A stretch of DNA of 64,000 nucleotides from Candidatus Omnitrophica bacterium UBA6253 (GTDB taxonomy: Bacteria; Omnitrophota; Gorgyraeia; Gygaellales; Profunditerraquicolaceae): the NCBI GenBank assembly GCA_002441245.1, contig DJVP01000005.1, positions 66,303 to 130,302 of the forward strand. The letters are read 5' to 3'. The position numbers were made by a program, and so were the translations under genes. The notes beneath the pieces are model-generated. The model worked only from the letters and a program-made list of their open reading frames with translations. It was not told the origin of the DNA and did not search any database. The stretch's first letter is position 1. Every line of letters starts with the position of its first letter. Shown piece by piece: positions 8,225 through 40,376 of this stretch.

Positions 8225-8995
8225 GTGCAGAAGATGAAGATTATAAGGAGGCTGATTATTGTATGCGGCATAGTATTTCTTGTTTTGGTCCTCCTGTTGG
8301 TTGCCGGTTTTTTTGTTACAAAACATTTAAAGATCAGGGAAATTGTAGAGGGGCAGATAGAACAAGGCCTTGGAATCAATGTCTCAATAGAAAGAATAGA
8401 ATTTTCTCCGCTTCTTGCACATGTCGGGGTAATCGGCATAACTATACATAATCCCAGTGGCTTTGAGGAAGAAGAGCTAGCCTATATTAGCTCGATCCAC
8501 TTTATATTTGACCCTATAGAAATTATTACCAATAAAAAACCAAACATTTACCTTTTGGGCCTGGATCTTAAGCGTCTGAATATAATAAAAAATAATGAAG
8601 GCAAGGTTAATATAGAAGAGATTAATCCCCTTAGGAATGAAAATGCTGCCATTCAGGATAAGACTCCCTTTTATTTTGATGTGATAGTGTTAAGTGTCGG
8701 CCAGGTTAGGTTTACTGACTATAGCGGGCCGAATAAAAAGGAACATATCTATCCGATAGGCATAAAGAATGTAGCGTTTGTTAACCTTAGCAATGAGCAG
8801 GAAGTAGTCAGGCTGATTGTTTCCAAGGCAATAGAGAATACAGATATAGGAAAATTAATTAACTTAAAGATTATACCTGTGGTTTCCCAGATAGGGGATA
8901 CCTTTAATTCGGCCTGGGGGACAGCTAAGATTGGGACAAAGGGTGCTTGGGGGATTATCACTTTACCGTTTAATCTGATTTTCGGAAAAAATTGA
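8225..8995 (+). CDS. Hypothetical membrane-anchored protein, possibly resembling an AsmA N-terminal domain.
   Basis: N-terminal TM helix IIVCGIVFLVLVLLLVAGFFV, followed by a beta-rich periplasmic domain. The AsmA-like assignment is weak. Confidence 0.45.
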   Translation: MQKMKIIRRLIIVCGIVFLVLVLLLVAGFFVTKHLKIREIVEGQIEQGLGINVSIERIEFSPLLAHVGVIGITIHNPSGFEEEELAYISSIHFIFDPIEIITNKKPNIYLLGLDLKRLNIIKNNEGKVNIEEINPLRNENAAIQDKTPFYFDVIVLSVGQVRFTDYSGPNKKEHIYPIGIKNVAFVNLSNEQEVVRLIVSKAIENTDIGKLINLKIIPVVSQIGDTFNSAWGTAKIGTKGAWGIITLPFNLIFGKN

Positions 8996-9080
8996 AATCT
9001 TATATTAAGGAACAAGGATATAAAAAATAGTTCTAAGCTGCTAGCGTAATCCTGCCAATTAATCGCAGTATAATTTTTCA

Positions 9081-9130
9081 TTGACAGTATTAAACATTAT
9101 GTTATACTTGTTATGAACATATGTTCATAA
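9081..9130 (+). promoter_or_regulatory. Sigma70 promoter (TTGACA-16-TATACT) immediately followed by a perfect 20-bp palindromic operator, TTATGAACATATGTTCATAA.
   Basis: TTGACA at 9081-9086, TATACT at 9103-9108, perfect palindrome at 9111-9130 covering the predicted +1. It lies about 15 nt upstream of the DUF134 regulator gene. Confidence 0.6.
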
Positions 9131-9145
9131 CTAAAGAGGTTAAAT

Positions 9146-9448
9146 TTGAGGCCTAAAAAGACCAGATGGATAAAATGCGCCCCGGATGAGAGGTGTTTTA
9201 AGCCGCGTTGTAAGCCGCTTAGCAAACTTCAGGGTGTTTATCTTAGCCTCGACGAGTTTGAAGCTATTCGTTTGGCTGATCTTGTGGGGTTAAAGCAGAT
9301 AGATGCTTCAAGGCTTATGCATATATCCCGCCCGACATTTTCACGTATTGTAGCGTTGGCAAGAAAAAAAGTAGCAGATGGCTTAGTGAATATAAAGGTG
9401 ATTAGAATTGAAGGTGGTTGCTGCAGGATTAAAAGGAGGATAAAATGA
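9146..9448 (+). CDS. DUF134 (UPF0251) family predicted DNA-binding protein with a sigma70 region-4-like HTH. Probable regulator of the downstream ars cluster.
   Basis: MRPKKTRWIKCAPDERCFKPRCKP...LSLDEFEAIRLADLVGLKQIDASRLMHISRPTFSRIVALARKKVADGLVNIKVIRIEGG matches the DUF134 pattern (RPRKCR...FKP...L.ELEA.RL.DLEG..Q...A..M.VSR.TF.R....AR.KVA.ALV.GKAI.IEG). It has an N-terminal C-x6-C-x5-C motif and a C-terminal CC pair. Confidence 0.8.
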   Translation: MRPKKTRWIKCAPDERCFKPRCKPLSKLQGVYLSLDEFEAIRLADLVGLKQIDASRLMHISRPTFSRIVALARKKVADGLVNIKVIRIEGGCCRIKRRIK

Positions 9449-9594
9449 AAGATTTAACTGGCCAGGGGAAGATAAAAAAAGGTTTTTTTGCCAGGATGAT
9501 TGATAAATTGGATAAAAAAATGCAAGAAAAGTCAAAATCTAAATCTTGTTGTTGCAATAACGGTAAATCGGATAAGAAATCATGCTGCAGTTAA
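9445..9594 (+). CDS. Unannotated 49-aa cysteine-rich micro-ORF (MKDLTGQGKIKKGFFARMIDKLDKKMQEKSKSKSCCCNNGKSDKKSCCS), a putative thiol/metal(loid)-binding peptide.
   Basis: Its ATG overlaps the DUF134 stop (ATGA at 9445-9448) and its stop overlaps the ArsP start by 13 nt. The RBS AAAAGGAGGA lies 8 nt upstream. The C-terminus carries CCC-x9-CC. It is under 60 aa and therefore absent from the track. Confidence 0.45.
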   Translation: MKDLTGQGKIKKGFFARMIDKLDKKMQEKSKSKSCCCNNGKSDKKSCCS

Positions 9595-10544
9595 TTGTAG
9601 ATTGGCTGGTATATTCTTTATTTAAATTGGACCCGCTTGCTAAATGGGCGCAAGTAATAAACTTTTTTATTTACGATTCTATAAAGATTTTATTACTTTT
9701 GTTTGTTTTGATTTCTATTATTGGATTTTTGAGGTCATATTTACCGGCAGGTAAAATAAAACAGTATTTAAGCGGCAAGAAAGTATTTCCTAACCTTTTG
9801 GCCTCTATGTTTGGTGCAGTAACCCCGTTTTGTTCCTGCTCCTCAATTCCTATATTTATAAGCTTTCTTGAAGCAGGTGTCCCCTTAGGGGTAACATTTT
9901 CCTTTTTGATTACATCGCCCTTGATTAATGAGTATCTTGTTGTGTTGATGATCGGTTTCTTTGGTTTTAAGATTACGTTTTTTTATGTGTTGAGTGGCAT
10001 AATAATAGGGGTTGTTTCCGGGATTGTTTTGGGAAGAATGAGACTGGAGAGGTATCTTGTAAAAGATTTGGTCAATCAGAATAGTCAGAATACTTCTGCA
10101 AAAATACCGAAAGGTTTTAAAGACCGGATATTATTTGGGGTACAAGAGGCAAAATCAATTGTCGAAAAACTCTGGTTCTGGGTTTTAGCCGGGGTAGGCC
10201 TGGGCGCGTTAATCCATAATTTTGTTCCGCAGGAGCTTGTACATAATTTAATAAACAAGGCGGGGTTTTTTAGTGTCCCCCTGGCTGCATTTATCGGAGT
10301 CTTCATGTATGGCAGCTGTGCGGCAATTGTGCCGATAGCCGTAGCTTTATTCCAAAAAGGATTCCCCCTTGGCACTGCGTTAGCTTTTATGATGGCAGTT
10401 TCAGCGTTAAGCCTGCCTGAGGCAATTATGTTAAGAAGGGCGATGCAATTAAAATTGATTGCTATATTCTTTATAGTGACTACTGCGGCGATCATCCTTA
10501 CGGGTTACCTGTTTAATTTCTTGCAAAGAATTTTATTTGGATAA
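9582..10544 (+). CDS. arsP: ArsP-type organoarsenical efflux permease (DUF318 permease family).
   Basis: Eight predicted TM segments. The diagnostic ArsP motif TPFCSCSSIP appears in ...FGAVTPFCSCSSIPIFISFLEAG... Confidence 0.75.
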   Translation: MLQLIVDWLVYSLFKLDPLAKWAQVINFFIYDSIKILLLLFVLISIIGFLRSYLPAGKIKQYLSGKKVFPNLLASMFGAVTPFCSCSSIPIFISFLEAGVPLGVTFSFLITSPLINEYLVVLMIGFFGFKITFFYVLSGIIIGVVSGIVLGRMRLERYLVKDLVNQNSQNTSAKIPKGFKDRILFGVQEAKSIVEKLWFWVLAGVGLGALIHNFVPQELVHNLINKAGFFSVPLAAFIGVFMYGSCAAIVPIAVALFQKGFPLGTALAFMMAVSALSLPEAIMLRRAMQLKLIAIFFIVTTAAIILTGYLFNFLQRILFG

Positions 10545-10546
10545 AA

Positions 10547-10981
10547 TTGAAAAAAATACTTTTGATTTTTCTTATTTTTGCACTCTTTAGTTCCGATGTT
10601 GAGCTTACTGTAAATCTTGTTTGTGCAGCGCAGGCACCAACATCAAAAGTAATAGCCTATTATTTTCATGGTTCTTTCCGGTGTCCGACTTGCCGTAAAC
10701 TTGAACAATATTCTAAAGAGGCTATAGAAACTAATTTCGAAGACGCACTTGCAGCTGGTGAATTGGAATTTAAGGTTATCAACGTGGAAACTAAGGAAAA
10801 TGAGCATTATACAAGAGATTATCAGCTTTACACCAAATCGCTTATTTTGTCTTTTATTAAAGACGGCAAGCAGGAAAGATGGAAGAACCTTGATAAGATT
10901 TGGGAATATGCAGGTAATAGACAGAGATTCATTGATTATGTGAAGGATGAGACCGGAAATTTTCTAAGAGAAGCCCAATGA
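10547..10981 (+). CDS. Periplasmic thioredoxin-fold protein with a CPTC active site.
   Basis: Signal peptide MKKILLIFLIFALFSS. Motif FHGSFRCPTCRKLE has the WCxxC-like geometry of thioredoxin/TlpA-type oxidoreductases. Confidence 0.65.
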   Translation: MKKILLIFLIFALFSSDVELTVNLVCAAQAPTSKVIAYYFHGSFRCPTCRKLEQYSKEAIETNFEDALAAGELEFKVINVETKENEHYTRDYQLYTKSLILSFIKDGKQERWKNLDKIWEYAGNRQRFIDYVKDETGNFLREAQ

Positions 10982-11673
10982 CGGAGATATTAATAAGTTC
11001 AGTGTCGGCGTTGTGGCTTGGCATATTAGCTTCAATAAGCCCTTGTCCTTTGGCCAGTAATGTGGCTGCTGTTTCTTTTTTGTCTAAGAAGATAGTGCAT
11101 CCGGCGCTTGTGTTCATTTCTGGAATTGCCTATACGCTTGGCAGAATGGTTTCCTATGCGGTTTTAGGATGGGTTATTATCAACTCTTTTTTAAGTGTCC
11201 CGCAGGTTGCCCAGTTCCTGCAGAAATATATAGGTAAAGTTTTAGGCCCTCTTTTAATAATTACGGGGCTTATTTTGTTGAGAGTAATAATCCTGCGTTT
11301 GCCAAATATTTCGCTTTCCGAAAAACATCAAAATAGGCTTGGGGAATCATCTGCTGCAGGAGCTTTTCTTTTAGGTTTTATTTTTGCCTTAGCATTTTGT
11401 CCAATTTCAGCAGCACTATTCTTTGGCAGTATTATTCCCTTGGCGCTTAATAGTAAAACGGGGGCATTATTGCCATTTATCTATGGAGTTGGCACCGGGC
11501 TTCCGGTGTTAATATTTGCAGTGGCTATTGCTTTTGGTGTTACCTCTTTTAAGCAATGGTTTGGCCGGATTGCTGAAATAGAATGCTATACCCGTTGTTT
11601 AACCGGAGCGATTTTTATAGTTATTGGAGTTTATTATGTATGGGTGCATATAATATCTATATCTAAAATATAG
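10978..11673 (+). CDS. CcdA/DsbD-family transmembrane thiol:disulfide electron-transfer protein.
   Basis: Six TM helices with one Cys in each of two TM segments, ISPCPLA and LAFCPIS. This is the CcdA/DsbD-beta arrangement. It overlaps the thioredoxin-like gene by 4 nt. Confidence 0.6.
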
Positions 11674-11683
11674 GAGCAATTCT

Positions 11684-12853
11684 ATGAGCAAAATCCGAGA
11701 ACGGAATATGTCAATATTTGAGAAGTACCTGAGCTTTTGGGTTTTGTCGTGTATTGGAATGGGAATTATGATAGGCAGGATCGCTCCGGGTACGGCAAGA
11801 TTTCTTGATGGAATGGCTATTTATGTAAATGGAGCCCCGGTTGTTTCAATACCTATTGCTGTCTGTTTATTCTTTATGATGTATCCTATAATGGTAAAGA
11901 TAGATTTTGCGCAGGTGTTAAAAGCAGGAAGATCTCCTAAGCCGGTAGGCTTGACACTATTTGTGAATTGGGCGGTAAAACCTTTTACTATGTATGCTAT
12001 CGCTTTTTTGTTCCTGGGAATCTTATTTAAAGGATTAATCGGAGTGGATGCGGTAGATCTTGTTAAGCTTCCGCCTGGAGGGGATTGGGTTTTGGGTTCT
12101 ATCCACGGTTCAGGAACAGTTGTTATGAATGAAGGCATAAAAATGCTTCAGGTGCCACTCTGGCGCAGTTATTTCGCTGGGTGTATCTTACTTGGTGTTG
12201 CCCCCTGCACGGCAATGGTTTTGGTCTGGGGCTTCCTTGCTGGAGGCAACGACGGGCATACGCTTGTTATGGTCGCTATTAATTCTCTCGCCATGCTGTT
12301 GTTTTACGGCTTTTTGGGAGGGTTTCTGCTGGGCGTTGGAAGGATGCCGGTCCCTTGGCAGGCGTTATTATTATCAATCGCAATTTATGTGGCATTGCCT
12401 TTAATAACGGGGTATTTTTCAAGAAAATGGATTATTTCGCGTAAGGGGATAGGATGGTTTAATGAAAATTTCTTGCAGGTTTTGGCCCAGGTTTCAATTA
12501 TTGCCTTGTTATTTACTCTAGTCCTTTTGTTTTCATTTAAGGGGGGAGTAATCCTGGCGCAACCATTAACTATCCTTTGGATAGCCATTCCGCTTTTTAT
12601 CCAGACATGCCTTATATTTGCTTTCACTTACTGGATGGCAAAGAAAATTCGTTTAAAATATGAAGATGCGGCGCCTTCGGCCATAGTTGGGGCCAGTAAT
12701 CATTTTGAAGTTGCAATCGCCACGGCTACCATGCTGTTTGGGCTTTCATCGGGAGCAGCTTTGGCTACGGTAGTTGGAGTTTTGATCGAAGTTCCTGTTA
12801 TGCTTATGCTGGTAAAATTCTGTTTAAATACGAGAAATTGGTTTAAACAGTAA
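11684..12853 (+). CDS. acr3: Acr3-family arsenite efflux transporter.
   Basis: N-terminus [13 protein letters not shown] and the conserved [12 protein letters not shown] segment, containing the Acr3 catalytic Cys in the P-C-T-A motif. About 10 TM helices. The true start may be the internal Met at 11708. Confidence 0.85.
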
Positions 12854-12963
12854 AGGCCGGTTGCCCTCCTTTTCTGAAAATAATTGCTTAGCAGTTTTAT
12901 GGTGTTATAATGATTCATTAATTTTTAGGGGTTTAGTATTAGAACCAGTTTTATTAAAATACC

Positions 12964-14586
12964 ATGGTTTTTATTATTTTTATCTTGACCGGGTTAATCT
13001 TTGGGTTGGGTTATTTAAAATACGGTAAATTTCTGGCCCGGTTATTTGAGCTGGATGATAAGAATTCTCCTCCATCGGAGACCATGTATGACGGAGTGGA
13101 TTATGTGCCTGCCCCTGCACCAGTATTGTTTGGGCATCATTTTTCGTCAATCTCCGGAGCCGGTCCGGTTTTAGGCCCGATTATTGCTGGCTTGGCTTTT
13201 GGTTGGCTTCCGGTATGGCTTTGGGTGATTATTGGATCTATTTTTATTGGTGGCGTGCATGATTTTTCCAGTATGGTTATTTCTATGCGTAACCGCGGAA
13301 GGTCAATTGCTGAGATCGCCAGTAACTATATGTCCAGGAGGGCTTACCGGCTGATGCTGGTTTTTATCTGGCTTACCCTGGTCTATGTGCTTGCTGTATT
13401 TATGGACCTGACTGCCGTGACTTTTAAGGCTGATGGTGGGGTAGCTACCTCTTCGATATTATTCATTATACTAGCTATTGGTTTTGGGTTGGCGCTTTAT
13501 CGATTAAAAATTCCGCTTCTTTGGGCTACCGGGATATTTGTTTTTTTGCTTTTTTCTTGTGTTTGGCTTGGGCAAAAGATACCTCTTAATAATGTTCCGG
13601 TTTTATTTGGCGATAGCATAAAAACTTGGAATATTGTCTTGATTGTTTATTGTTTTATTGCCTCGGTTACTCCGGTTTGGATTTTGCTTCAACCAAGAGA
13701 TTATCTTTCAAGTTTTCTGCTTTATGGATCAATTTTAGGCGGTTCTTTAGGAATAGTTTTTGGCGGGTTCACCCTAAAATACCCGGCCTTTACCGGCTTG
13801 GTTTCCTCTGATATAGGCTCAATGTTTCCGCTTTTATTCGTTACTGTGGCTTGCGGTGCTATCAGTGGTTTTCATTCTATTGTTTCCAGCGGCACTTCTT
13901 CTAAGCAAATCAAGAAAGAAACCCATGTCTTGCCAATAGGTTATGGAGCGATGCTGGTGGAAGGGGTAGTAGCAGTAATCGCTCTTTGTACCATAATGAT
14001 AATTGGTAAAAATGATTCTCTAATTAAAGGAAATCCACTTGCTATCTATGGAGCTGGTATGGCTAAATTTTTATCTATATTCGGTATCCCGGAAAAATAT
14101 GGCAGTTCTTTTGGTGTCTTGGCCCTATCCACTTTTATCCTGACTACCCTTGATACTGCTACCCGGCTTGGCCGCTATATTTTCCAGGAATTCTTTCGTA
14201 TGGAAGCAAAGAGTTCCCGTTTTATTTCTACCATAGCGACATTATTCTTACCGGCCGTATTTGTTTTAGTAAACCTAAAAGATGCCAATGGCAATATTGT
14301 CCCGGCCTGGAAAACTATCTGGCCTGTTTTTGGGGCCACTAACCAGCTGTTGGCAGGCTTGGCGTTGATGGTAGTTGGTGTTTGGTTAAAGAAAAAGGGA
14401 AAGCCGTTTTGGTTTGCGGTATTGCCAATGATATTTATGCTTGCAATGACCTTGTGGGCTTTGTTTATCGTAATCATTCAGTATAAAATCAGCCTGCTTG
14501 GGTTTATTGGAGGCATCTTGCTGTTTCTATCTGTTTTCTTGATCCTGGAAGCTATCAAAATATTTAAGCCAGGCATTAACGGCTAA
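12964..14586 (+). CDS. cstA: Carbon starvation protein A (CstA) family peptide/pyruvate transporter.
   Basis: N-terminal CstA signature ...LFGHHFSSISGAGPVLGPIIAGLAFGWLP... and a polytopic membrane protein of about 540 aa. Confidence 0.85.
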   Translation: MVFIIFILTGLIFGLGYLKYGKFLARLFELDDKNSPPSETMYDGVDYVPAPAPVLFGHHFSSISGAGPVLGPIIAGLAFGWLPVWLWVIIGSIFIGGVHDFSSMVISMRNRGRSIAEIASNYMSRRAYRLMLVFIWLTLVYVLAVFMDLTAVTFKADGGVATSSILFIILAIGFGLALYRLKIPLLWATGIFVFLLFSCVWLGQKIPLNNVPVLFGDSIKTWNIVLIVYCFIASVTPVWILLQPRDYLSSFLLYGSILGGSLGIVFGGFTLKYPAFTGLVSSDIGSMFPLLFVTVACGAISGFHSIVSSGTSSKQIKKETHVLPIGYGAMLVEGVVAVIALCTIMIIGKNDSLIKGNPLAIYGAGMAKFLSIFGIPEKYGSSFGVLALSTFILTTLDTATRLGRYIFQEFFRMEAKSSRFISTIATLFLPAVFVLVNLKDANGNIVPAWKTIWPVFGATNQLLAGLALMVVGVWLKKKGKPFWFAVLPMIFMLAMTLWALFIVIIQYKISLLGFIGGILLFLSVFLILEAIKIFKPGING

Positions 14587-14702: not shown

Positions 14703-14748
14703 ACTCAGGCTTCTTGCGTTATTAAACGCAAGGGCTTGAGTTTTTTGT
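14703..14748 (+). terminator. Rho-independent terminator downstream of cstA.
   Basis: Hairpin CTCAGGCTTCTTGCGTT-ATTA-AACGCAAGGGCTTGAG with an inner perfect 8-bp stem (CTTGCGTT/AACGCAAG), followed by TTTTTTG. Coordinates are approximate to within 2 nt. Confidence 0.6.
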
Positions 14749-14768
14749 TTCCGGGAGAGGCCTATTTT

Positions 14769-17700
14769 ATGCGTATACATATAAAATTAATTATTCAAAC
14801 CTGCATCCTTATATTGGTCGCTATTGTTATATTTTCAGTATATGTCAGGGTGGAATTTGAGCAGAACACTATTTTATTCCAGAGCCAGAAGAAGGATATA
14901 GAAGATACCTTCAATAAGATATTAGATCTCAAATCAAAGCCATTGGAAACACTTGCGCTGGATTATAGCTATTGGGATGAATTGGTAAGTTATGTTAAGA
15001 AACCGAATAAGGTATGGGCAGAGCAGTATTTAAAAACCGCCATTTCAACTTATGACGTTGATTTAATGCTGGTTTATGACCGGGGTTTTTCTATGGTTTA
15101 TCATGTTTCTACGGCCGGCAATGAGGCTCTTTATGGTCAATTCAGTCAAAAAGTGGCCTTGCCTGAGGTCTTTATGCAAAAGAGGGTTAACCATTTCTTT
15201 ATTTATGTCGTTGAAGGAGTATTGGAAGTGTGTGGCGCTTCGATACATCCTACAAATGATCCGTTAAGAAAAGGCGAGCCGCAGGGATTTTTATTCGTCG
15301 CTAAGCTGTGGAGTAAGGGGTATATTGATGAAATTTCCAGGATTACCGACTGCCGGTTAGATATAATTTATCCATTCAGCAAAACAACTTTTATAAACAA
15401 TTTTCAATATAGGGATGAGGCAATCCAGTTTTCAAAAATCCTAAGGGATTGGGGCAATAGCCCTGTTGCCAGAGTGGATGTGGCAAAGATATCACAAAGC
15501 GTTATTGAATCCAAATTTATGTCAAGGCTGGAGATCATACTTATCGTATTTTTTATTTTATTCGTAGCCTTGGTTTATATCTGGTTTATTATACGCCAAG
15601 TGTATAGGCCTTTGGTCCTCATATCCAGGGCGCTTAAAGAACATAACTTGCAGCATATTCTTAAGATGCAGTCCGGGAGCAATGAATTTGCCGAGATAGC
15701 CAGGCTTATATTTAAATTCTCGGAAAACAAAATTGAACTTGCCAAAGAGGTGAACTTACTTAAAATCACCGAGAACCAATTAGAAAAAGAACGTGACCGC
15801 GTGCAGGAATATTTGGATATTGCAGGCGTTATGCTGGTAATTTTGGATAAAGAGGGCAATATCAGCATGATTAATAAAAAAGGCTGCGCTATCCTGGGTT
15901 ATGAAGAACGGGAAATAATGGGAAAGAATTGGTTTCAAACCTGCCTGTTACAAGAAAACAAAGAAGAGGTGTCCGGAGTTTTTAGAAAGATTATTTCGGG
16001 TGATGAAGATTTTAAGGAGTATTATGAGAACCAGGTTTTAAGGAAAGATGGGGTATTGCGCATGGTTGCATTTCATAACGCTATCCTTAGGGGTAAAGAT
16101 TCCAAGATTATCGGCATATTATTTTCAGGGGAAGATATCACTGAGCGCAAGCAGATAGAAAAAGATTTGCATAAAATTTCCAGAGAATTGCAGGTAATAA
16201 TTGATTCTTCTCAGAGTATGATTTATTATAAAGATAAAGAGAACCGTTTTATTTTTGTAAATAAAGCCTTCGCGGAGATATCCGGATTACCAAAAGAAAG
16301 TATCGAAGGCAGGACCGCTTTTGAGCTTTTCCCGGAATATGCAGATAAATATTGGCAAGACGACCTCAGTGTTATAAATACAAATTTGCCAAAGTTAGAT
16401 ATCTATGAGTCTTTAATAACAAAAAATGGGGTGCTTTGGCTTAAGACAGATAAGATCCCTTATAAAGATGAGCACGGTAATATCATAGGGGTAATAGGGT
16501 TTTCTTTAGATGTTACCTTGCAAAAACAGGCTGAAGAAGCGTTATTGGAGAGCGAAGAAAAATACCGTAGCATCGTAAACAATATCGGTATCGGCATTGC
16601 GTTGATTAGCCCGGATATGGAGATTTTGTCTTTGAACAGTCAAATGAGGCAGTGGTATCCCGGTATTGATTTGAAACAAAAACATATTTGTTATTGTTGT
16701 TTTAATAATCCTCCGGCGAAGGAAATCTGCTCTTATTGTCCGACTGTCAAGACACTCAAAGACGGACAGGTCCATGAAAGTGTCACGGAGACCCCTATGG
16801 GAGATAAAATCTTTAATTATAGAATTATTTCTTCACCTGTCCGGGGTAAAAACGGGAAGATCGTTGCGGCAATTGAGATGGTTGAGGATATTACTGAGAG
16901 CAGAAGGGCGGAAAAGGCGTTACGGGAGAGTGAGGAGCGTTATCGTGTTCTTTTTAACGGTTCTCATGATGCACTGATGACTTTGGACCCTCCCGGGTTT
17001 AAGTTTACTTCCGGCAATGTCGCAGCCATAGAGTTATTCGGAATTAAAGATATGGCGGAATTTACAACCCTTTGCCCATGGGATATATCTCCAGAAATTC
17101 AGCCTGACGGCAAGGCTTCTGTAGTAAAGGCAAAGGAGATGTTGGAAATCGCCATAAGCAAAGGATCGTCTTATTTTGAATGGACGCATAAGCGTCCTAA
17201 TGGAGAAGAATTTCTTTGTTTAGTTTTGCTTAGCGTGTTTACTTTTTCCGGTAAAAAGATAGTCCAGGCCAGTGTGCGCGATATTACCGAAACCAAGAAG
17301 ATAGAGGATGAGCTGAAGCGAAAAACGGAATTTTTAGAAGCCCAAAAAGAAGCTTCTCTTGATGGTTTGTTAGTTGTCGATGAATACGGAAAGAGGGTTT
17401 TGGCGAATAAACGGTTGATTGAACTATGGAAGATTCCGCAAGAGATCGTTGAAGATGAGAATGATGAAGCGCTCCTGCAGTATGTGGTGGAAAAAGCAAA
17501 AGATCCGCAGCAGTTTTTAGATAAAGTAAATTACCTTTATGCCCATAGGGATGAAAAAAGCCGCGATGAGATAGAGTTTAAAGATGGGATGGTTTTTGAC
17601 AGGTATTCATCCCCGGTTATTGATAAAAACGGAAAATACTTTGGCCGTATATGGACATTCCGGGATATCACCGAGCTTAAACAGGCGGAGCAGGAGCTAA

Positions 17701-17819
17701 AGAAGGACCTGCATGATCTGGAGGTCTTTTATAAAGCTTCTTTAGGCAGGGAAGAACGCATATTGGAACTTAAAAAGCACATAAGGGAGCTCGAGCAAAG
17801 ATTGGGTAACGTAAAATAA
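14769..17819 (+). CDS. Membrane-bound multi-PAS sensor protein with no output domain. It has two TM helices, a periplasmic domain of about 230 aa, four to five PAS/PAC domains, and a C-terminal coiled coil.
   Basis: The track start at 14736 is a TTG inside the terminator, so ATG 14769 (MRIHIKLIIQTCILILVAIV) is the preferred start. The second TM helix is LEIILIVFFILFVALVYIWFII. PAS signatures include MINKKGCAILGYEEREIMGKNWFQ and FVNKAFAEISGLPKESIEGRTAFELFP. No HisKA, HATPase, GGDEF, EAL or HD-GYP domain is present, and the protein ends in a coiled coil. Confidence 0.8.
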   Translation: MRIHIKLIIQTCILILVAIVIFSVYVRVEFEQNTILFQSQKKDIEDTFNKILDLKSKPLETLALDYSYWDELVSYVKKPNKVWAEQYLKTAISTYDVDLMLVYDRGFSMVYHVSTAGNEALYGQFSQKVALPEVFMQKRVNHFFIYVVEGVLEVCGASIHPTNDPLRKGEPQGFLFVAKLWSKGYIDEISRITDCRLDIIYPFSKTTFINNFQYRDEAIQFSKILRDWGNSPVARVDVAKISQSVIESKFMSRLEIILIVFFILFVALVYIWFIIRQVYRPLVLISRALKEHNLQHILKMQSGSNEFAEIARLIFKFSENKIELAKEVNLLKITENQLEKERDRVQEYLDIAGVMLVILDKEGNISMINKKGCAILGYEEREIMGKNWFQTCLLQENKEEVSGVFRKIISGDEDFKEYYENQVLRKDGVLRMVAFHNAILRGKDSKIIGILFSGEDITERKQIEKDLHKISRELQVIIDSSQSMIYYKDKENRFIFVNKAFAEISGLPKESIEGRTAFELFPEYADKYWQDDLSVINTNLPKLDIYESLITKNGVLWLKTDKIPYKDEHGNIIGVIGFSLDVTLQKQAEEALLESEEKYRSIVNNIGIGIALISPDMEILSLNSQMRQWYPGIDLKQKHICYCCFNNPPAKEICSYCPTVKTLKDGQVHESVTETPMGDKIFNYRIISSPVRGKNGKIVAAIEMVEDITESRRAEKALRESEERYRVLFNGSHDALMTLDPPGFKFTSGNVAAIELFGIKDMAEFTTLCPWDISPEIQPDGKASVVKAKEMLEIAISKGSSYFEWTHKRPNGEEFLCLVLLSVFTFSGKKIVQASVRDITETKKIEDELKRKTEFLEAQKEASLDGLLVVDEYGKRVLANKRLIELWKIPQEIVEDENDEALLQYVVEKAKDPQQFLDKVNYLYAHRDEKSRDEIEFKDGMVFDRYSSPVIDKNGKYFGRIWTFRDITELKQAEQELKKDLHDLEVFYKASLGREERILELKKHIRELEQRLGNVK

Positions 17820-17841: not shown

Positions 17842-20727
17842 ATGACTATAGTACTATTCTTTTATGGTATGGCTTTTATACTTATGGGCATGGTCTTAAT
17901 CGCCATCCCCAGAAAAGAAGATTTTCTGGGGATTGTAGGGAACTTTTGGGCGCTTGCCCTTTTTGCGGTAATCCACGGGGTCAACTCCTGGGTTAGCATA
18001 TTTATTATAAGGACAGGGGCATTTGATACCGGAATACTTACTGTCATAGGGGCTATTCTTCTTCCTCTTTCTTTTGTTTTTATAGTTTTATTCGGGGTCC
18101 TCAATATTTTACAGCGGCATCCGGCTTACAAATGGTTGAGTTTTTTGCCGATTGCCTGTTTATTGCCGTGGTTTTTTGCCTGTATTACAGGTAAGGGGGC
18201 AATGACTGCCGGGATAATGGCGCGTTATTTTATATGTTTACCCGGGATTGCCATTGTTATAATTGATATATTTCAGCGCCTTGTTTTATATAAAAAAGAA
18301 TTACCGATGCTGGTTTTTGTAAGTACAATAGTTTTTATCTTTGCTAGCTGTGTATATGCCGTTGTTTCAGGGTTAATCGTGCCCAAGGCGGATTTTTTCC
18401 CGGCCTCAGCAATAAACTATACTAATTTTATCAGGGTATTTGGTTTTCCTGTGCAGATTATTAGAATACTGTGTGCTATTATTATGGCAGCAGCAGCCTT
18501 TGGGATGACCGGGGTTTTTTATAAGGATAAAATAAAGGTCCGCCTTATCGGAGGCATCAAACGCAAGGTTTTAGTTTTCACGGTATTATTCAGCTTGGTT
18601 ATTCTTGTGACTAGCGTGTTAATGCTTTATTTTTCAGGGTTGTTTACGCTGCGGCAAGTTACTTTTAGCCAGCAACAGGCTATTGTGCAATTGATGGCCA
18701 ATTCTATGGGTAAGATTATTGAGTCTGAAGTCAAGGAATTGGAGAGCTATGTAGCGAGCCCGAGTATCTGGGGAGCAGTTATTAATGATGTCAATCTTAA
18801 ATATTCTACAGTGCCTGATAAAACTATACAGGAGTATTTCGCAGGTAAGGATAGGGAATGGTTGCAGTCACCCCCCGGCGGTACTGTGGTAAATAAGTAT
18901 GTTAATACACTCTTAGGCCTGCGGCTTAGGAAATTCGTTGAGACAAAAGGCAATATTACAGAGATATTTTTTACCGATAAATACGGCGGGCTTGTAGTAG
19001 CTTCATCAAAAACAAATGATTTCTATCAGGCGGATGAAGCATGGTGGCAGAAAACCTTTGACGCTGGCAGAGGCCGTGTGTTTATCGGTGATATGGAGTT
19101 TAATGCATTCAGTAACAGCTGGTCTATTACTATATCAGTGCCGGTGTACGGTAAGGATGCAGAGGTAGTCGGTGTCTGCAAGGCAGTTTATAATACATTA
19201 AAGTTTTCTGACGTGATTTCTAGATTCGAAATAGGATCTACCGGGCGCGCAATTTTGTTTGATAATAGCGGGGAGCTTATATGCCAAAGCGGGCACAATC
19301 TTGCTAGAAACAAAAGTTCAGTTTTGCCAGAATGGGATGTCATTAAAGAGACGCAATCAAAAAAATCTTTTTTATCTTCTGCTTATGTCCGCCGCGATAC
19401 GGGCAGTGTTTTCCTGATTTCGTGGGCAGTAGTGCCTTATAAGGGGTTGTTGCAGCAAGGAGTAAAATGGTTTGCTTGTGTTGAGCAGGATACTAAAGAA
19501 ATATTTGCAGGGCAGGAGTTGATACTTTTATTGTATTCTATAGTATTGTTCGGGATATTACTGGTTTTGTCAATGTACTTTAGTTTTTTGTTTGTGCGTT
19601 TGTTAATCCTGCCAATTGAAAAGATGCGTTTAGGGATGCGCGAGATTGCCGCAGGCAACTTAAGCTACTATTTAAATTTAAGAAGCGGAGATGAGCTTGA
19701 AGATCTTTCGGATTCTTTTAACGTGATGGTTGACACAATGCGTAAGACCCTGGTTTCCAAGGATGCCTTGATTACTGAAGTTTCCGAGCGCAAACAGGCG
19801 GAATGTATGCTTGAACAATCTAAGGAAAAATTGGAGAAACAGGCACAGGAATTAAGCATCCAATTGGAAGGAAGGGCGAAGACGCATGAAATAATGATGA
19901 GCATGCTAGAGGATAATAATACGATCAGGGATGCGTTAGAGAAGAGTTTGATAGAGTTAAGGCAGACACAGGAGATGATGGTGCAGGTAGCAAAGCTTAG
20001 CGCGGTAGGGCAGCTGGCCAGCGGAGTAGCGCACGAAGTTAAGAATCCCTTGGGAATAATTTTGCAGGGCATAAATTATCTGGAAAATAAGATACCAAGC
20101 GAGGAAAAAGATATCTGCGAAGTCCTGGGGATGATGAAAGACGGCATAGGGCGCGCGGATAAAATTATTAACGGACTCCTTGATTTTTCCAAATCTACTA
20201 AGTTAGATTTCAGGCAGGAGGATATAAAATATGTATTGGAAAGTTCAATAGATTTAGCGCAGGTCTCATCCAGGTTCTCCGGAGTGCAGATTGTTAAAGA
20301 AATGGCAGGGCATATCCCTAAAGTAAATATTGATAAGAATAAGATGGAGCAGGTTTTTATTAATATATTGGTTAATGCGGCTCAGGCCATGGCAGATGGT
20401 AAGGGTAAAATTACTGTCCGTAGTTATGTAAAAAGATTAGAAAAGTCCAAAAAATCAAGAATTAACAAAGAGGTGGATTATTTTGTCGCTGGGGAGGAAG
20501 CCTTGGTAGTTGAAATCGAAGATACAGGAACGGGAATATCAGAAGAGAACCTGAAGAAAATATTTGATGCCTTTTTTTCTACGAAAGGCCCTAAGGGAGG
20601 GGCTGGTTTGGGTTTGGGGATATGCCTGAGCATAGTGGATATGCATAAGGGTATAATTGATGTAGAAAGCCAGTTAGGAAAGGGAACCAAGGTAACCATC
20701 ACCTTGAAGTTAGCCACGGGGGGATAA
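17842..20727 (+). CDS. Sensor histidine kinase: 8-TM N-terminal module, extracytoplasmic Cache-like domain, HAMP, coiled coil, HisKA, HATPase_c.
   Basis: Eight hydrophobic helices in the first ~260 aa. A Cache-like region follows (e.g. ...YQADEAWWQKTFDAGRGRVFIGDMEFNAFSNSWSITISVPV...), then a TM helix and HAMP. The H-box is GVAHEVKNPLGII, and the G-boxes are DTGTGISEENLKKIFDAFFSTK and GGAGLGLGICLSIVDMHKG. Confidence 0.85.
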   Translation: MTIVLFFYGMAFILMGMVLIAIPRKEDFLGIVGNFWALALFAVIHGVNSWVSIFIIRTGAFDTGILTVIGAILLPLSFVFIVLFGVLNILQRHPAYKWLSFLPIACLLPWFFACITGKGAMTAGIMARYFICLPGIAIVIIDIFQRLVLYKKELPMLVFVSTIVFIFASCVYAVVSGLIVPKADFFPASAINYTNFIRVFGFPVQIIRILCAIIMAAAAFGMTGVFYKDKIKVRLIGGIKRKVLVFTVLFSLVILVTSVLMLYFSGLFTLRQVTFSQQQAIVQLMANSMGKIIESEVKELESYVASPSIWGAVINDVNLKYSTVPDKTIQEYFAGKDREWLQSPPGGTVVNKYVNTLLGLRLRKFVETKGNITEIFFTDKYGGLVVASSKTNDFYQADEAWWQKTFDAGRGRVFIGDMEFNAFSNSWSITISVPVYGKDAEVVGVCKAVYNTLKFSDVISRFEIGSTGRAILFDNSGELICQSGHNLARNKSSVLPEWDVIKETQSKKSFLSSAYVRRDTGSVFLISWAVVPYKGLLQQGVKWFACVEQDTKEIFAGQELILLLYSIVLFGILLVLSMYFSFLFVRLLILPIEKMRLGMREIAAGNLSYYLNLRSGDELEDLSDSFNVMVDTMRKTLVSKDALITEVSERKQAECMLEQSKEKLEKQAQELSIQLEGRAKTHEIMMSMLEDNNTIRDALEKSLIELRQTQEMMVQVAKLSAVGQLASGVAHEVKNPLGIILQGINYLENKIPSEEKDICEVLGMMKDGIGRADKIINGLLDFSKSTKLDFRQEDIKYVLESSIDLAQVSSRFSGVQIVKEMAGHIPKVNIDKNKMEQVFINILVNAAQAMADGKGKITVRSYVKRLEKSKKSRINKEVDYFVAGEEALVVEIEDTGTGISEENLKKIFDAFFSTKGPKGGAGLGLGICLSIVDMHKGIIDVESQLGKGTKVTITLKLATGG

Positions 20728-20728
20728 A

Positions 20729-21103
20729 ATGGTTAAGAAGATATTGATAATTGACGATGAGGTGAATTTTGGCAAGCTAGTCAAGAAAAACCTGGAATTA
20801 TCAGGCAACCTTAAAGTAGAGGTTGCTGTAAACGGAAATGAAGGTATCAGGTTAGCCTCAAGGCTAAAACCGCATTTAATCTTGCTGGATATACTCATGC
20901 CTGATATGGACGGATTTCAGGTTTTGGATAAATTGAAGAAAAATGTTAATACTGCTTTGATCCCCGTGATTCTGCTTAGCGCAAAAGGGGATAATGCAAC
21001 CAGGATCCAAGCTTCAAGTAAAGATGTTGAATTGTTCATAACTAAGCCAATAGGTTCAAGCGAGCTAAAGGATAAAATAATAAAAATCTTAAAGAGTATC
21101 TAA
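20729..21103 (+). CDS. Single-domain response regulator (CheY-like receiver).
   Basis: KILIIDDE, phospho-acceptor Asp within HLILLDILMPDMDGF, and the conserved SAKG/K region. It starts 1 nt after the kinase stop. Confidence 0.85.
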   Translation: MVKKILIIDDEVNFGKLVKKNLELSGNLKVEVAVNGNEGIRLASRLKPHLILLDILMPDMDGFQVLDKLKKNVNTALIPVILLSAKGDNATRIQASSKDVELFITKPIGSSELKDKIIKILKSI

Positions 21104-21110
21104 AAGGAGT

Positions 21111-21500
21111 ATGGGGATGGCCAAGAAAAGAATATTAATCATAGATGACGAGAAAAACCTTTGTATTTTATTAAAATCAAATTTAGAAAGTACCGGCGAG
21201 TATGATGTATATACTGCTTATTCGGGAGAAGAGGGTTTGAAGAAGGCAAAAGAAACAGGCTTTGATTTAGTGATTACGGATTTTAAAATGCCCGGGTTAA
21301 ACGGCAGGCAGGTACTAAACGCGCTTAAGGATATGAGGCCAAATTCGCCGGTAGTGCTTTGTTCCGTTTACCATGATGATCCCAGTACGGTCACCGCTTT
21401 AGACATAGCTAAGGCCGATGGAATAATCACAAAGCCATTCGAACATAAACAGCTCTACAGTACGATAAAAAAGATCTTAGCTGATAATACTAATAAGTAA
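21111..21500 (+). CDS. Single-domain response regulator (receiver only).
   Basis: RILIIDDE and DLVITDFKMPGLNG. No output domain. Confidence 0.85.
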   Translation: MGMAKKRILIIDDEKNLCILLKSNLESTGEYDVYTAYSGEEGLKKAKETGFDLVITDFKMPGLNGRQVLNALKDMRPNSPVVLCSVYHDDPSTVTALDIAKADGIITKPFEHKQLYSTIKKILADNTNK

Positions 21501-21529
21501 TAAGACCGAGATTAAAAAGGAGGCGAAAA

Positions 21530-21922
21530 ATGTCAAATAAGAAAATATTAATTGTTGACGATGAAGTGGATTTTACCAGGTTATTAAAATCCAATCTCGA
21601 GGAAACCGGAAAATTTGAAGTATTGGCCTTGCCTAATGCGAACGACATCATATCTCAAGTCCATGCTTTTAAGCCGGATATTATTTTACTCGATATTATT
21701 ATGCCCGGGACAAAGGGGATTGAAGTTTGCGAGATGCTTAATAAAGATGTAGTCGGCAAGGCCATACCCATTATCATTATTTCTGCCTTGGCTAAAGACG
21801 CAGACAAATATAAGGCTTATAGGGTTGGAGTAGTAGACTATATGGAAAAACCAATTGAAATAGAACGCTTAATCGTAAAAATAGATAAGTATATCCAATT
21901 TAAACAAGGCGCAGAAAGCTAA
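21530..21922 (+). CDS. Single-domain response regulator (receiver only).
   Basis: KILIVDDE and DIILLDIIMPGTKG. No output domain. Confidence 0.85.
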   Translation: MSNKKILIVDDEVDFTRLLKSNLEETGKFEVLALPNANDIISQVHAFKPDIILLDIIMPGTKGIEVCEMLNKDVVGKAIPIIIISALAKDADKYKAYRVGVVDYMEKPIEIERLIVKIDKYIQFKQGAES

Positions 21923-39720: not shown

Positions 39721-40376
39721 GGAAGATATTAATATGCGTAGTCTCATTATTGATGCTGTTTCTAAATGCAGGCGTTATTTATGCAGGCGCCTTTTTATCT
39801 CCGGAGAAGACAAAAGGGGCCCTCAGGGAAGAGATTCCCAATGAGGGTTATGAAAATGATTCAGCGGATAAAAAAAAGGCTTTTGAAAATTTTAAGGCTA
39901 CAAGAAAACTGTTATATGAAAAAATGATTAAGCGCACCGGCGACTGCAGGGATGAGTTGGATAATATGTTTCTTATGGTAAACAACCTTTTTAAAAAGGC
40001 TCGCGAGGAAAAAGATATTAAAAAAGAAAAAGAGCTGGTTACGGTGATGAGCGATTATAACAGCGTGCTTGGTGACTTGGGGCTTATGCAGGTAGTTTTA
40101 GACCTGGGGAAATTCGCTGAAGGCGATAAGTTTATAGAATATTATGTGGTTATGGAAAACGGTTTTGAGCGGTTGAAGGGAAACTTCAGCTTAAAAAATG
40201 AAATATTCTTGGGCAGGATAGATGCTTTAACGAATCAGGATGCCTTGCGTTATGAGAAAAAGCTCTTAAGGATCTATAGGGATTATTTTGAGTATGATCC
40301 AAAGATTGACAGGATGGTTGAGATAGAAGATGCGCCTAAGCAGGAAAAAGGCAAGCTTAATAAAAGGGGAGGATAA
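39717..40376 (+). CDS. Hypothetical secreted alpha-helical protein.
   Basis: Signal peptide MRKILICVVSLLMLFLNAGVIYAGA. Overlaps upstream by 4 nt. Confidence 0.45.
   Translation: MRKILICVVSLLMLFLNAGVIYAGAFLSPEKTKGALREEIPNEGYENDSADKKKAFENFKATRKLLYEKMIKRTGDCRDELDNMFLMVNNLFKKAREEKDIKKEKELVTVMSDYNSVLGDLGLMQVVLDLGKFAEGDKFIEYYVVMENGFERLKGNFSLKNEIFLGRIDALTNQDALRYEKKLLRIYRDYFEYDPKIDRMVEIEDAPKQEKGKLNKRGG

Follow-up and report, generated by a model that had tools for sequence, protein, structure and literature searches.

A six-gene arsenic cluster headed by a DUF134 gene

We analyzed a 64,000-nucleotide (nt) stretch of contig DJVP01000005.1 (positions 66,303 to 130,302; here called the window) from Candidatus Omnitrophica bacterium UBA6253, focusing on an arsenic-resistance (ars) cluster whose first gene encodes a protein of the DUF134/UPF0251 family. 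Positions 9081 to 12853 of the + strand carry six tightly packed, co-directional open reading frames (ORFs). An initial annotation of this DNA had proposed such a cluster; an ORF check recovered all six ORFs at the coordinates that it gave, and five of them were assigned by Pfam/NCBIfam. The features of the region are as follows.

9081-9108, + strand: sigma-70-type promoter (-35 TTGACA at 9081-9086, a 16-nt spacer, and an extended -10 TGtTATACT at 9100-9108)
9111-9130, unstranded: predicted DUF134 operator, a perfect 20-bp palindrome, TTATGAACATATGTTCATAA (i.e., TTATGAAC-ATAT-GTTCATAA)
9146-9448, + strand: DUF134/UPF0251 protein, 100 amino acids (aa), TTG start (PF02001, 79.7 bits against a cut-off of 27, residues 2 to 92)
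9445-9594, + strand: pep49, a Lys/Cys-rich micropeptide of 49 aa that matches no Pfam or NCBIfam family
9582-10544, + strand: PF03773 (ArsP_1) permease, 320 aa, putative trivalent (organo)arsenical efflux (Pfam E = 8e-69)
10547-10981, + strand: ArsF-family protein, 144 aa, TTG start (NCBIfam NF040494, 117.1 bits against 60)
10978-11673, + strand: ArsG-family membrane protein of the CcdA/DsbD_2 type, 231 aa (NF040495, 270.2 bits against 200)
11684-12853, + strand: ACR3-family arsenite efflux transporter, 389 aa (TIGR00832, 363.9 bits against 282.8)

The ArsG protein also matches Pfam DsbD_2 (PF13386; 64 bits against a cut-off of 24.9). The motifs quoted in the initial annotation are present, including TPFCSCSSIP of the permease, GVAPCTAMV of Acr3 (in which Cys175 is kept in 67 of 67 homologues), CPTC of ArsF, and the C-terminal GGCC of the DUF134 protein. 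The spacing C-x6-C-x5-C that it gave for the DUF134 cysteines must be corrected to C11-x5-C17-x4-C22, to which C92-C93 is added. Its description of the genes as coupled by overlaps of 4 to 13 nt holds for three of the five junctions (DUF134/pep49, 4 nt; pep49/permease, 13 nt; ArsF/ArsG, 4 nt), the other two being gaps of 2 and 10 nt. Identical six-gene clusters occur in three NCBI assemblies, in which the annotators also called the 49-aa ORF. Searches of the 64-kb window by tblastn and Pfam detected no homologues of ArsR, of ArsC of the low-molecular-weight protein tyrosine phosphatase type, of ArsM, or of ArsE/Trx3, which bears out the proposed lack of ArsR, ArsC, and ArsM; no ArsD-specific search was made.

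The promoter (TTGACA-16-TATACT with the TG extension) matches at 11 of 12 positions and is the sole strong match in the region from 8900 to 13100, while no internal promoter or terminator above the shuffled expectation was found. The palindrome occurs once in the window (0.01 copies expected by chance), begins 2 nt past the -10 element, and spans the expected transcription start. One strong promoter and one perfect 20-bp palindrome agree with the single promoter and operator claimed earlier. Rfam returned no known RNA element in positions 8700 to 13200, and the idea that the palindrome acts as a riboswitch or leader RNA was therefore dropped.

Linkage of a Cys-rich DUF134 clade to ars genes

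One genome per species was scanned with a 12-sequence DUF134 alignment; about 500 relatives were detected, and the 80 best loci were used. All of these belong to a clade of Cys-rich DUF134 proteins (identity, 62 to 88%), and nearly all come from Omnitrophota. A metagenome scan, through which alone the generic DUF134 family was sampled, also detected about 500 relatives and added 54 metagenomic members. More than 120 database clusters are 75 to 100% identical to the DUF134 protein of the window, which is 100% identical to a protein annotated in metagenome-assembled genomes (MAGs) of Candidatus Omnitrophota.

In each of the 80 species-level genomes with a clade DUF134 gene, ars genes lie directly downstream on the same strand. 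Among the loci (L011 to L144) with at least 900 nt of downstream sequence, 112 of 113 have an ars gene next to the DUF134 gene. The gene order is conserved, i.e., DUF134-(49-aa peptide)-ArsP-type permease-(ArsM)-(ArsE-type thioredoxin)-ArsF-ArsG-Acr3-(ArsC). Operon content varies across loci, from a full variant (DUF134 followed by ArsP-ArsM-ArsE-ArsF-ArsG-Acr3-ArsC) to minimal operons (DUF134-Acr3, DUF134-ArsM-Acr3, and DUF134-ArsF-ArsG), and DUF134 always comes first. Genes were counted in the 65 loci whose downstream sequence spans 5.5 kb or more: the ArsP-type permease is encoded in 55, ArsF in 51, Acr3 in 51, ArsG in 50, ArsE in 43, ArsM in 26, ArsC in 16, and the 49-aa peptide in 12. The ArsM genes of relatives were identified by the arsenite methyltransferase family NF008823 (329 and 362 bits against 263) and their ArsE genes by the MTH895/ArsE family TIGR00412 (103 bits against 62). 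The architecture of the window is the second commonest (6 of 65 loci). The absence of ArsM and ArsC, which had been put forward as a trait of the cluster, holds for this window and is specific to its variant, as the counts of these two genes among the relatives indicate. The flanking genes vary by locus, so that it is the module and not the wider neighborhood that is conserved.

ArsR-family genes were found near only 3 of approximately 160 loci. Elsewhere, the same effectors occur under ArsR-type regulators: Bacteroidota plasmids carry ArsR-ArsE-ArsF-ArsG-permease and winged helix-turn-helix regulator-ArsF-ArsG-thioredoxin-permease-ArsC-Acr3 arrangements, and Ilyobacter carries ArsR-permease-thioredoxin. 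The effector set is thus of a known kind, and the difference in Omnitrophota is the regulator.

Some of these loci have further features. In L004 (8001-10485) and L005, DUF134-permease (390 aa)-ArsE is directly followed by desulforedoxin-like and rubrerythrin genes, and rubrerythrin genes lie near several other loci; such neighbors may reflect a link to oxidative-stress defense. Second, divergent DUF134 paralogues (46 to 56% identity) are located within 8 kb of the ars-linked gene in four loci (L036, 6-209; L075, 944-1156; L131, 9751-9987; L135, 470-730), and L075 has a different palindrome, TTATTGACATATGTCAATAA, some 90 nt upstream of the segment matched in its paralogue. The sole DUF134 protein without GGCC found near arsenic genes is encoded in L152 (32-3048); it has extra N-terminal Cys residues (RPCKCRWVC), and its gene has an Acr3 fragment upstream and an ArsM-like methyltransferase gene downstream.

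A conserved box that covaries with the DUF134 recognition helix

The box TTATGAAC-N4-GTTCATAA lies 2 to 3 nt past the -10 element in 80 of the 80 species-level genomes. In 75 of them the palindrome (up to 4 mismatches) is located 24 to 44 nt upstream of the DUF134 start; in the remaining 5 the box is present and its central 4 nt are variable. The -35 and TGnTAnnnT elements are likewise kept in related loci whose upstream regions otherwise diverge or do not align. A box that extends from the -10 element over the expected start is placed as a repressor site would be.

Among loci, both half-sites change symmetrically (to TGCAC..GTGCA or TGAGC..GCTCA). TGAAC is found with the predicted recognition helix SRPTFSR, and TGCAC with HRST(I/V)SR and most SRSTF(S/T)R helices. 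When residue 63 of the helix (P or S) is cross-tabulated with base 6 of the operator (A or C), the counts are 200, 2, 8, and 50 for P63/A6, P63/C6, S63/A6, and S63/C6, respectively (Fisher P = 2e-42, no phylogenetic correction). The S63 state occurs in at least three helix backgrounds, and the G66 and N67 variants of the helix go with other half-site changes.

Fold and cysteines of the DUF134 protein

The AlphaFold2 (AF2) model of the DUF134 protein (predicted local distance difference test [pLDDT], 89) has a three-helix core. This core (approximately residues 35 to 81) is a helix-turn-helix of the sigma-70-region-4/SorC type, with N- and C-terminal strands bearing the cysteines on either side of it. 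The core matches sigma-70 region 4, including that of extracytoplasmic function sigma factors, and the DNA-binding domain of Bacillus subtilis DeoR (7bhy; profile E = 2e-7; Foldseek root mean square deviation, 0.7 Å over 41 columns). No Pfam or NCBIfam match to the ArsR-type winged helix (PF01022/PF12840) was found in the protein. At the position aligned with its TTG start, other loci have ATG.

Three of the five cysteines (C11, C17, and C22) lie in the N-terminal arm and two (C92 and C93) in the C-terminal GGCC. They are kept in 78 to 81 of 81 clade members, and divergent ars-linked members retain at least C11, C92, and C93. The consensus of the wider family reads ...FKPxGxP... and ...EGGxx at these positions; C17, C22, C92, and C93 are missing from it, and C11 is present in some generic members. 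Since generic members lack them, the cysteines are not needed by the fold. The As(III) sites of ArsR proteins evolved independently, and their cysteines are likewise clade specific and dispensable for folding.

A predicted arsenic-responsive repressor in place of ArsR

Taken together, the linkage of the clade to ars genes, the conserved operator, the covariation with the helix, and the clade-specific cysteines indicate that the DUF134 protein is very probably the regulator of the operon, in line with the initial proposal that it replaces ArsR. The best reading of the comparative data is that of an autoregulated repressor, probably released by trivalent arsenicals. More broadly, we consider it likely (probability of roughly 0.6) that the locus represents one architectural variant of a phylum-wide Omnitrophota ars operon in which a Cys-rich DUF134 clade took over the role of ArsR.

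In the mechanism that we propose, the DUF134 protein, presumably as a dimer, would bind TTATGAAC-N4-GTTCATAA over the transcription start and repress its own gene and the five downstream genes, as comparative genomics suggests. By analogy with the three-thiolate sites of ArsR proteins, As(III), and possibly methylarsenite [MAs(III)] or Sb(III), would be bound by thiolates of the invariant C92-C93 pair plus C11, C17, or C22, and the repressor would be released. Acr3 would then export arsenite, as expected from its family assignment, and the PF03773 permease may export trivalent arsenicals via its Cys-x-Cys motif. The translationally coupled peptide pep49 might assist the permease as a thiol chaperone or partner, replacing the ArsE-type thioredoxin of other subtypes. 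Judging from homology, ArsG would pass reducing equivalents to the exported ArsF, and ArsF would in turn support, outside the cytoplasm, a thiol-dependent step acting on arsenicals or on thiols that arsenic has damaged.

The resemblance to ArsR/SmtB repressors (e.g., R773 ArsR, AfArsR, and CgArsR) lies in organization: a small, predicted autoregulated protein encoded by the first gene of an ars operon, a palindrome that overlaps the promoter, a vicinal Cys pair suited to three-thiolate As(III) binding, and the same downstream effectors. In contrast, there is no kinship in sequence or fold; the helix-turn-helix of DUF134 is of the sigma-70-region-4/SorC type, without a winged helix or a PF01022 match, and its cysteines reside in an N-terminal arm and the C-terminal GGCC.

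Several observations weigh against the proposed arsenic-responsive repressor. The association between residue 63 and base 6 ignores shared ancestry and has counterexamples, S63 being found with A6 eight times. Some clade members lack C11, C17, or C22, and the main-clade members without C11 keep the others. TGAAC..GTTCA palindromes also serve other regulator families, and at locus L060 a near-identical box precedes a Cys-free ArsR-family gene; another factor acting at the box is therefore conceivable. Finally, the five cysteines could hold Zn or an Fe-S cluster or act as a redox sensor.

The last point leads to an alternative in which DUF134 is still an autoregulated repressor, with cysteines that either hold structural Zn or Fe-S or sense thiol/redox stress or a soft metal (Cd, Cu, Hg, or Sb). 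This would account for the presence of five conserved cysteines, i.e., more than the three needed for As(III), and it accords with the variant operon that runs on into desulforedoxin and rubrerythrin genes, with the Cu/Zn efflux (SO_0444) and SaoE families among the relatives of the permease, and with the Zn-ribbon-like CxxC...CPxC tails of many generic DUF134 proteins. However, every operon holds dedicated arsenic genes (e.g., those for Acr3, ArsM, ArsC, or ArsEFG), even where it is reduced to DUF134-Acr3 or DUF134-ArsM-Acr3, and a structural role fits poorly with a fold that generic members attain without these cysteines. A vicinal Cys pair together with a third Cys is, moreover, the pattern of known ArsR As(III) sites. 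We regard a purely non-arsenic role of the cysteines as unlikely.

In another alternative, a different regulator, such as an ArsR/SmtB protein encoded elsewhere, would act at the palindrome, and DUF134 would be co-transcribed in another role. TGAACA..TGTTCA resembles the 12-2-12 operators of ArsR/SmtB repressors, an ArsR-family gene in L060 has a box (TTATGACCATATGTTCATAT) 40 nt upstream of it, and weaker boxes precede a TetR-like gene in L054. We nevertheless consider this alternative very improbable: the box always accompanies a DUF134 gene, even at the non-ars loci of other phyla, which have boxes of different sequence; its half-site bases covary with DUF134 helix residues in at least three helix backgrounds; and ArsR homologues are missing from the window and, with few exceptions, from the related loci.

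The L060 gene in question (13482-13892) encodes an ArsR/SmtB-family protein without cysteines and is situated 3 kb downstream of the DUF134 ars operon of that locus. Its near-copy of the box could reflect cross-regulation or convergent operators.

The permease and its putative peptide partner

The permease contains the Cys-x-Cys motif within TPFCSCSSIP and combines it with a PF03773 match, as expected for ArsP. Its best NCBIfam matches, SaoE and SO_0444, score far below the cut-offs. For this reason, and because the partner genes are arsenic specific, a Cu/Zn efflux operon was rejected. All permease subtypes of the related loci keep the CSC motif, as do generic permeases from other phyla. It had been treated as diagnostic of ArsP; this use did not survive, given that the motif is common to generic PF03773 permeases of Ilyobacter and Citrobacter. 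The motif is therefore a feature of the family and no proof of ArsP specificity.

A permease of Campylobacter jejuni, ArsP, was reportedly described by Chen et al. in 2015 (Mol Microbiol 98:625) as a methylarsenite efflux permease acting on MAs(III) and Rox(III). The permease of the window shares with it the PF03773 domain and a vicinal Cys-x-Cys in a transmembrane (TM) segment, and related Omnitrophota operons pair their permease with ArsM. The 320-aa subtype found in the window differs in that it never occurs with ArsM (0 of 14 loci) and has a peptide partner; in addition, the Cys motif is family wide.

On a Citrobacter plasmid (NZ_CP011133.1; L171, 3893-5947), a homologous TPFCSCS permease is encoded in a permease-thioredoxin-rhodanese-DUF2703 cluster that adjoins genes for cation diffusion facilitator and TauE/SafE transporters and contains no ars genes. 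As this cluster shows, members of the permease family also occur outside arsenic contexts.

The peptide pep49 contains an amphipathic segment (KKGFFARMIDKLDKKM) followed by CCC-x9-CC-S. Its homologues, 41 to 78% identical, share a K/E-rich N terminus, followed by KKGFFARhhDKLDKKM (amphipathic) and by CC(C)-x8-11-CC(S), and their stop codon always lies 13 nt inside the permease gene. Thirteen database clusters were found for pep49, of which the three with an organism label are all from Omnitrophota/Omnitrophica; none is labeled otherwise. Of the 24 loci whose permease is of the 320-aa subtype, 22 encode the peptide; no locus with another permease subtype does. In 41 of 41 cases, an ArsE gene follows a permease of those other subtypes, but only 2 of 14 loci with the 320-aa subtype have one. 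ArsE occurs exclusively alongside an ArsP-type permease (43 of 43), and ArsFG occur without ArsE in 10 loci. On the basis of this pattern of co-occurrence, ArsE and pep49 look like alternative thiol partners of the permease.

We propose that pep49 may act as a chaperone or thiol hand-off partner analogous to ArsD. Like the ArsD metallochaperone, it has vicinal Cys pairs and is encoded just before a transporter, which suggests a hand-off of As(III). Unlike ArsD, a thioredoxin-fold protein of approximately 120 aa that serves the ArsA ATPase, pep49 has 49 aa and no detectable homology, and it would serve a secondary permease.

A weaker alternative is that the 49-codon ORF does not yield a functional peptide and serves as a regulatory leader or coupling upstream ORF for the permease (e.g., for the sensing of Cys-tRNA or thiol depletion). 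Such a role would suit a short ORF with clustered Cys codons that overlaps both neighbors (by 4 and 13 nt) and is restricted to one lineage. We nevertheless consider it quite unlikely, since the amino acid conservation of 41 to 78% extends outside the 13-nt overlap and includes the amphipathic segment and both CC pairs, and since the ORF stands in for a protein, ArsE/Trx3, in the gene order. We also rejected the notion of pep49 as the N terminus of a permease gene split by a frameshift: the N terminus of the 390-aa permeases is unrelated to it, and the overlap is identical in 22 loci.

ArsF and ArsG as a putative electron relay

The ArsF protein consists of a signal peptide and a thioredoxin-fold domain with CPTC. 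The CxxC is kept in 76 to 77 of 77 homologues, all of which have a hydrophobic N-terminal segment. In its AF2 model, pLDDT is approximately 82 to 96 over most of residues 31 to 144 and 70 to 76 over approximately residues 81 to 100. Thioredoxins, Bcp, and protein disulfide isomerase were the best Foldseek matches, with probabilities of about 1 and TM-scores of only 0.3 to 0.45; no flavin or nitroreductase domain was detected in ArsF. The ArsG protein has the DsbD-type TM domain with cysteines in TM1 and TM4 that characterizes CcdA/DsbD proteins: Cys23 (SPCP) and Cys141 (FCP) are both kept in 69 of 69 homologues. Its only sequence relative in the PDB is Thermus thermophilus CcdA (5VKV; E = 9e-4), in the alignment with which the first active-site Cys is matched and the second is one position off.

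Homology thus favors, though not decisively, a membrane electron conduit (ArsG) paired with an exported thioredoxin (ArsF) over the functions given in the curated family names. The initial annotation had described a thioredoxin-CcdA pair; the electron conduit is the favored part of that description, and the pair itself is not new, as it corresponds to the curated ArsF and ArsG families. As in relays of the CcdA/DsbD-ResA/CcmG type, a six-TM DsbD_2 protein with cysteines in TM1 and TM4 is encoded beside an exported CxxC thioredoxin-fold protein, here with genes overlapping by 4 nt. In contrast to those relays, ArsF and ArsG are located in an ars operon and not in a cytochrome c maturation locus, and the ArsF domain is very divergent.

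The curated names stand against an electron relay, since they describe a nitroreductase subunit and an efflux permease, and so does the absence from the window of ArsE, a part of the published ArsEFG system. Chen, Zhang, and Rosen reportedly assigned the reduction of nitro-aromatic arsenicals and efflux to ArsEFG of Shewanella putrefaciens 200 in 2019 (Environ Sci Technol 53:6182). The ArsF and ArsG proteins of the window pass the family cut-offs, and many Omnitrophota operons hold ArsE-ArsF-ArsG in this order. The window, however, lacks ArsE, and across loci ArsE follows the ArsP-type permease and not ArsFG; furthermore, the sequence and fold of ArsF and ArsG point to a CcdA-thioredoxin relay and not to a nitroreductase with a permease. 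The restriction of ArsE to loci with the permease and the 10 loci with ArsFG alone misfit a strict ArsE-ArsF-ArsG unit. The curated names derive from the Shewanella ArsEFG study, which is cited in PMC9144182.

If the curated names applied, ArsF would be the reductase subunit for nitro groups (of the roxarsone/nitarsone type) and ArsG the efflux permease for the amino-aromatic products, with no thiol relay. The NCBIfam names and scores speak for this assignment, as does the Prokaryotic Genome Annotation Pipeline (PGAP), which already names the Omnitrophota homologues of ArsF and ArsG in this way. On the other side stand the homology of ArsG to CcdA with both active-site cysteines kept in 69 of 69 homologues, the exported CxxC thioredoxin fold of ArsF with no flavin or nitroreductase domain detected, and the lack here of ArsE, which tracks the permease rather than ArsFG. 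Additionally, synthetic nitro-aromatic arsenicals would be an unlikely selective agent for Omnitrophota of groundwater, lakes, and sediments. We consider the nitroreductase/permease assignment somewhat unlikely.

Generic members of the DUF134 family

The arsenic linkage is confined to the Cys-rich clade and does not extend to the whole DUF134 family. A survey of DUF134 neighborhoods for arsenic genes had been suggested at the outset; its outcome was positive for the clade, whereas generic members pair with NifX-like (PF02579) genes. In total, 3,151 representatives of 50% identity clusters match PF02001 at E ≤ 0.001, and a full-text literature search for DUF134, UPF0251, PF02001, and COG1342 returned no paper on the function of the family.

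Generic DUF134/UPF0251 proteins (PF02001, COG1342) share the domain with the protein of the window (45 to 55% identity), and their genes are also preceded by a palindrome of the TTATGnnC-N4-GnnCATAA type. They differ in lacking C17, C22, and C92/93, in that many carry a Zn-ribbon-like C-terminal CxxC...CPxC tail, and in being followed by PF02579 NifX-like genes, not ars genes, in six of the six loci checked. Examples among L145 to L170 are L169 (5995-7431), L170 (5989-6863), and L149 (934-1724), which contain small PF02579 (NifX/NifB-C-like) genes; the pairing suggests an unexplored module. Distant DUF134 genes in unrelated contexts have related boxes of their own, namely TTATGAGCATATGCTTATAA with the helix SRQTFGR and TTATTAGCATATGCTAATAA with SRQTFGN. 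These palindromes suggest family-wide autoregulation, most simply by binding of each DUF134 protein to a TTATGnnC-N4-GnnCATAA box in the promoter of its own gene.

Implications for arsenic regulation

The textbook view of bacterial arsenic sensing is built on ArsR/SmtB proteins, and we know of no described case of a structurally unrelated small repressor of ars operons. The effector genes reported here are ordinary and were already named by PGAP. Three points appear to be new: a Cys-rich DUF134 clade has displaced ArsR throughout a phylum, an operator whose specificity code can be read is predicted for the whole family, and one permease subtype comes with the CC...CC micropeptide pep49. If correct, these predictions would describe a second, structurally unrelated solution to the problem solved by ArsR, would explain the control of arsenic detoxification in an uncultured and very abundant phylum of groundwater and sediments, and would offer a new chassis for arsenic biosensors. 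For the widespread DUF134 family, which comprises about 3,150 clusters at 50% identity, they also amount to a first concrete set of bench-testable predictions: an operator, candidate ligand cysteines, a likely inducer, and a helix residue that would determine specificity (P63 or S63, matched to A or C at position 6 of the operator). The functional naming of ArsE, ArsF, and ArsG is put in doubt. We see roughly even odds for the more general proposal that DUF134/UPF0251 is an unrecognized family of autoregulated transcription factors that share the palindromic box TTATGnnC-N4-GnnCATAA, and that one clade of it independently evolved a Cys site and became the arsenic sensor of a phylum, working together with pep49 as an arsenic chaperone of peptide size, the first of its kind to serve a secondary permease.

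Other features of the window

A CstA-like transporter gene (12964-14586) follows Acr3 in the window. In another MAG (L007, 10677-12323), a CstA-like gene follows a response-regulator gene that itself follows a DUF134-ArsM-Acr3 operon. Because no terminator was found after Acr3, residual synteny or co-transcription is possible. Farther downstream, two ORFs of approximately 1,000 aa each (14736-17819 and 17842-20727) precede three tandem genes for stand-alone response-regulator receiver proteins (20729-21922; 124, 129, and 130 aa; PF00072). From position 40364 to the end of the window at 64000, the + strand contains one stop-free frame of at least 7,879 codons, i.e., a giant gene that continues past the window end and, being open-ended, is missing from the ORF list; the G+C content of this region is 0.43 to 0.45, compared with about 0.40.

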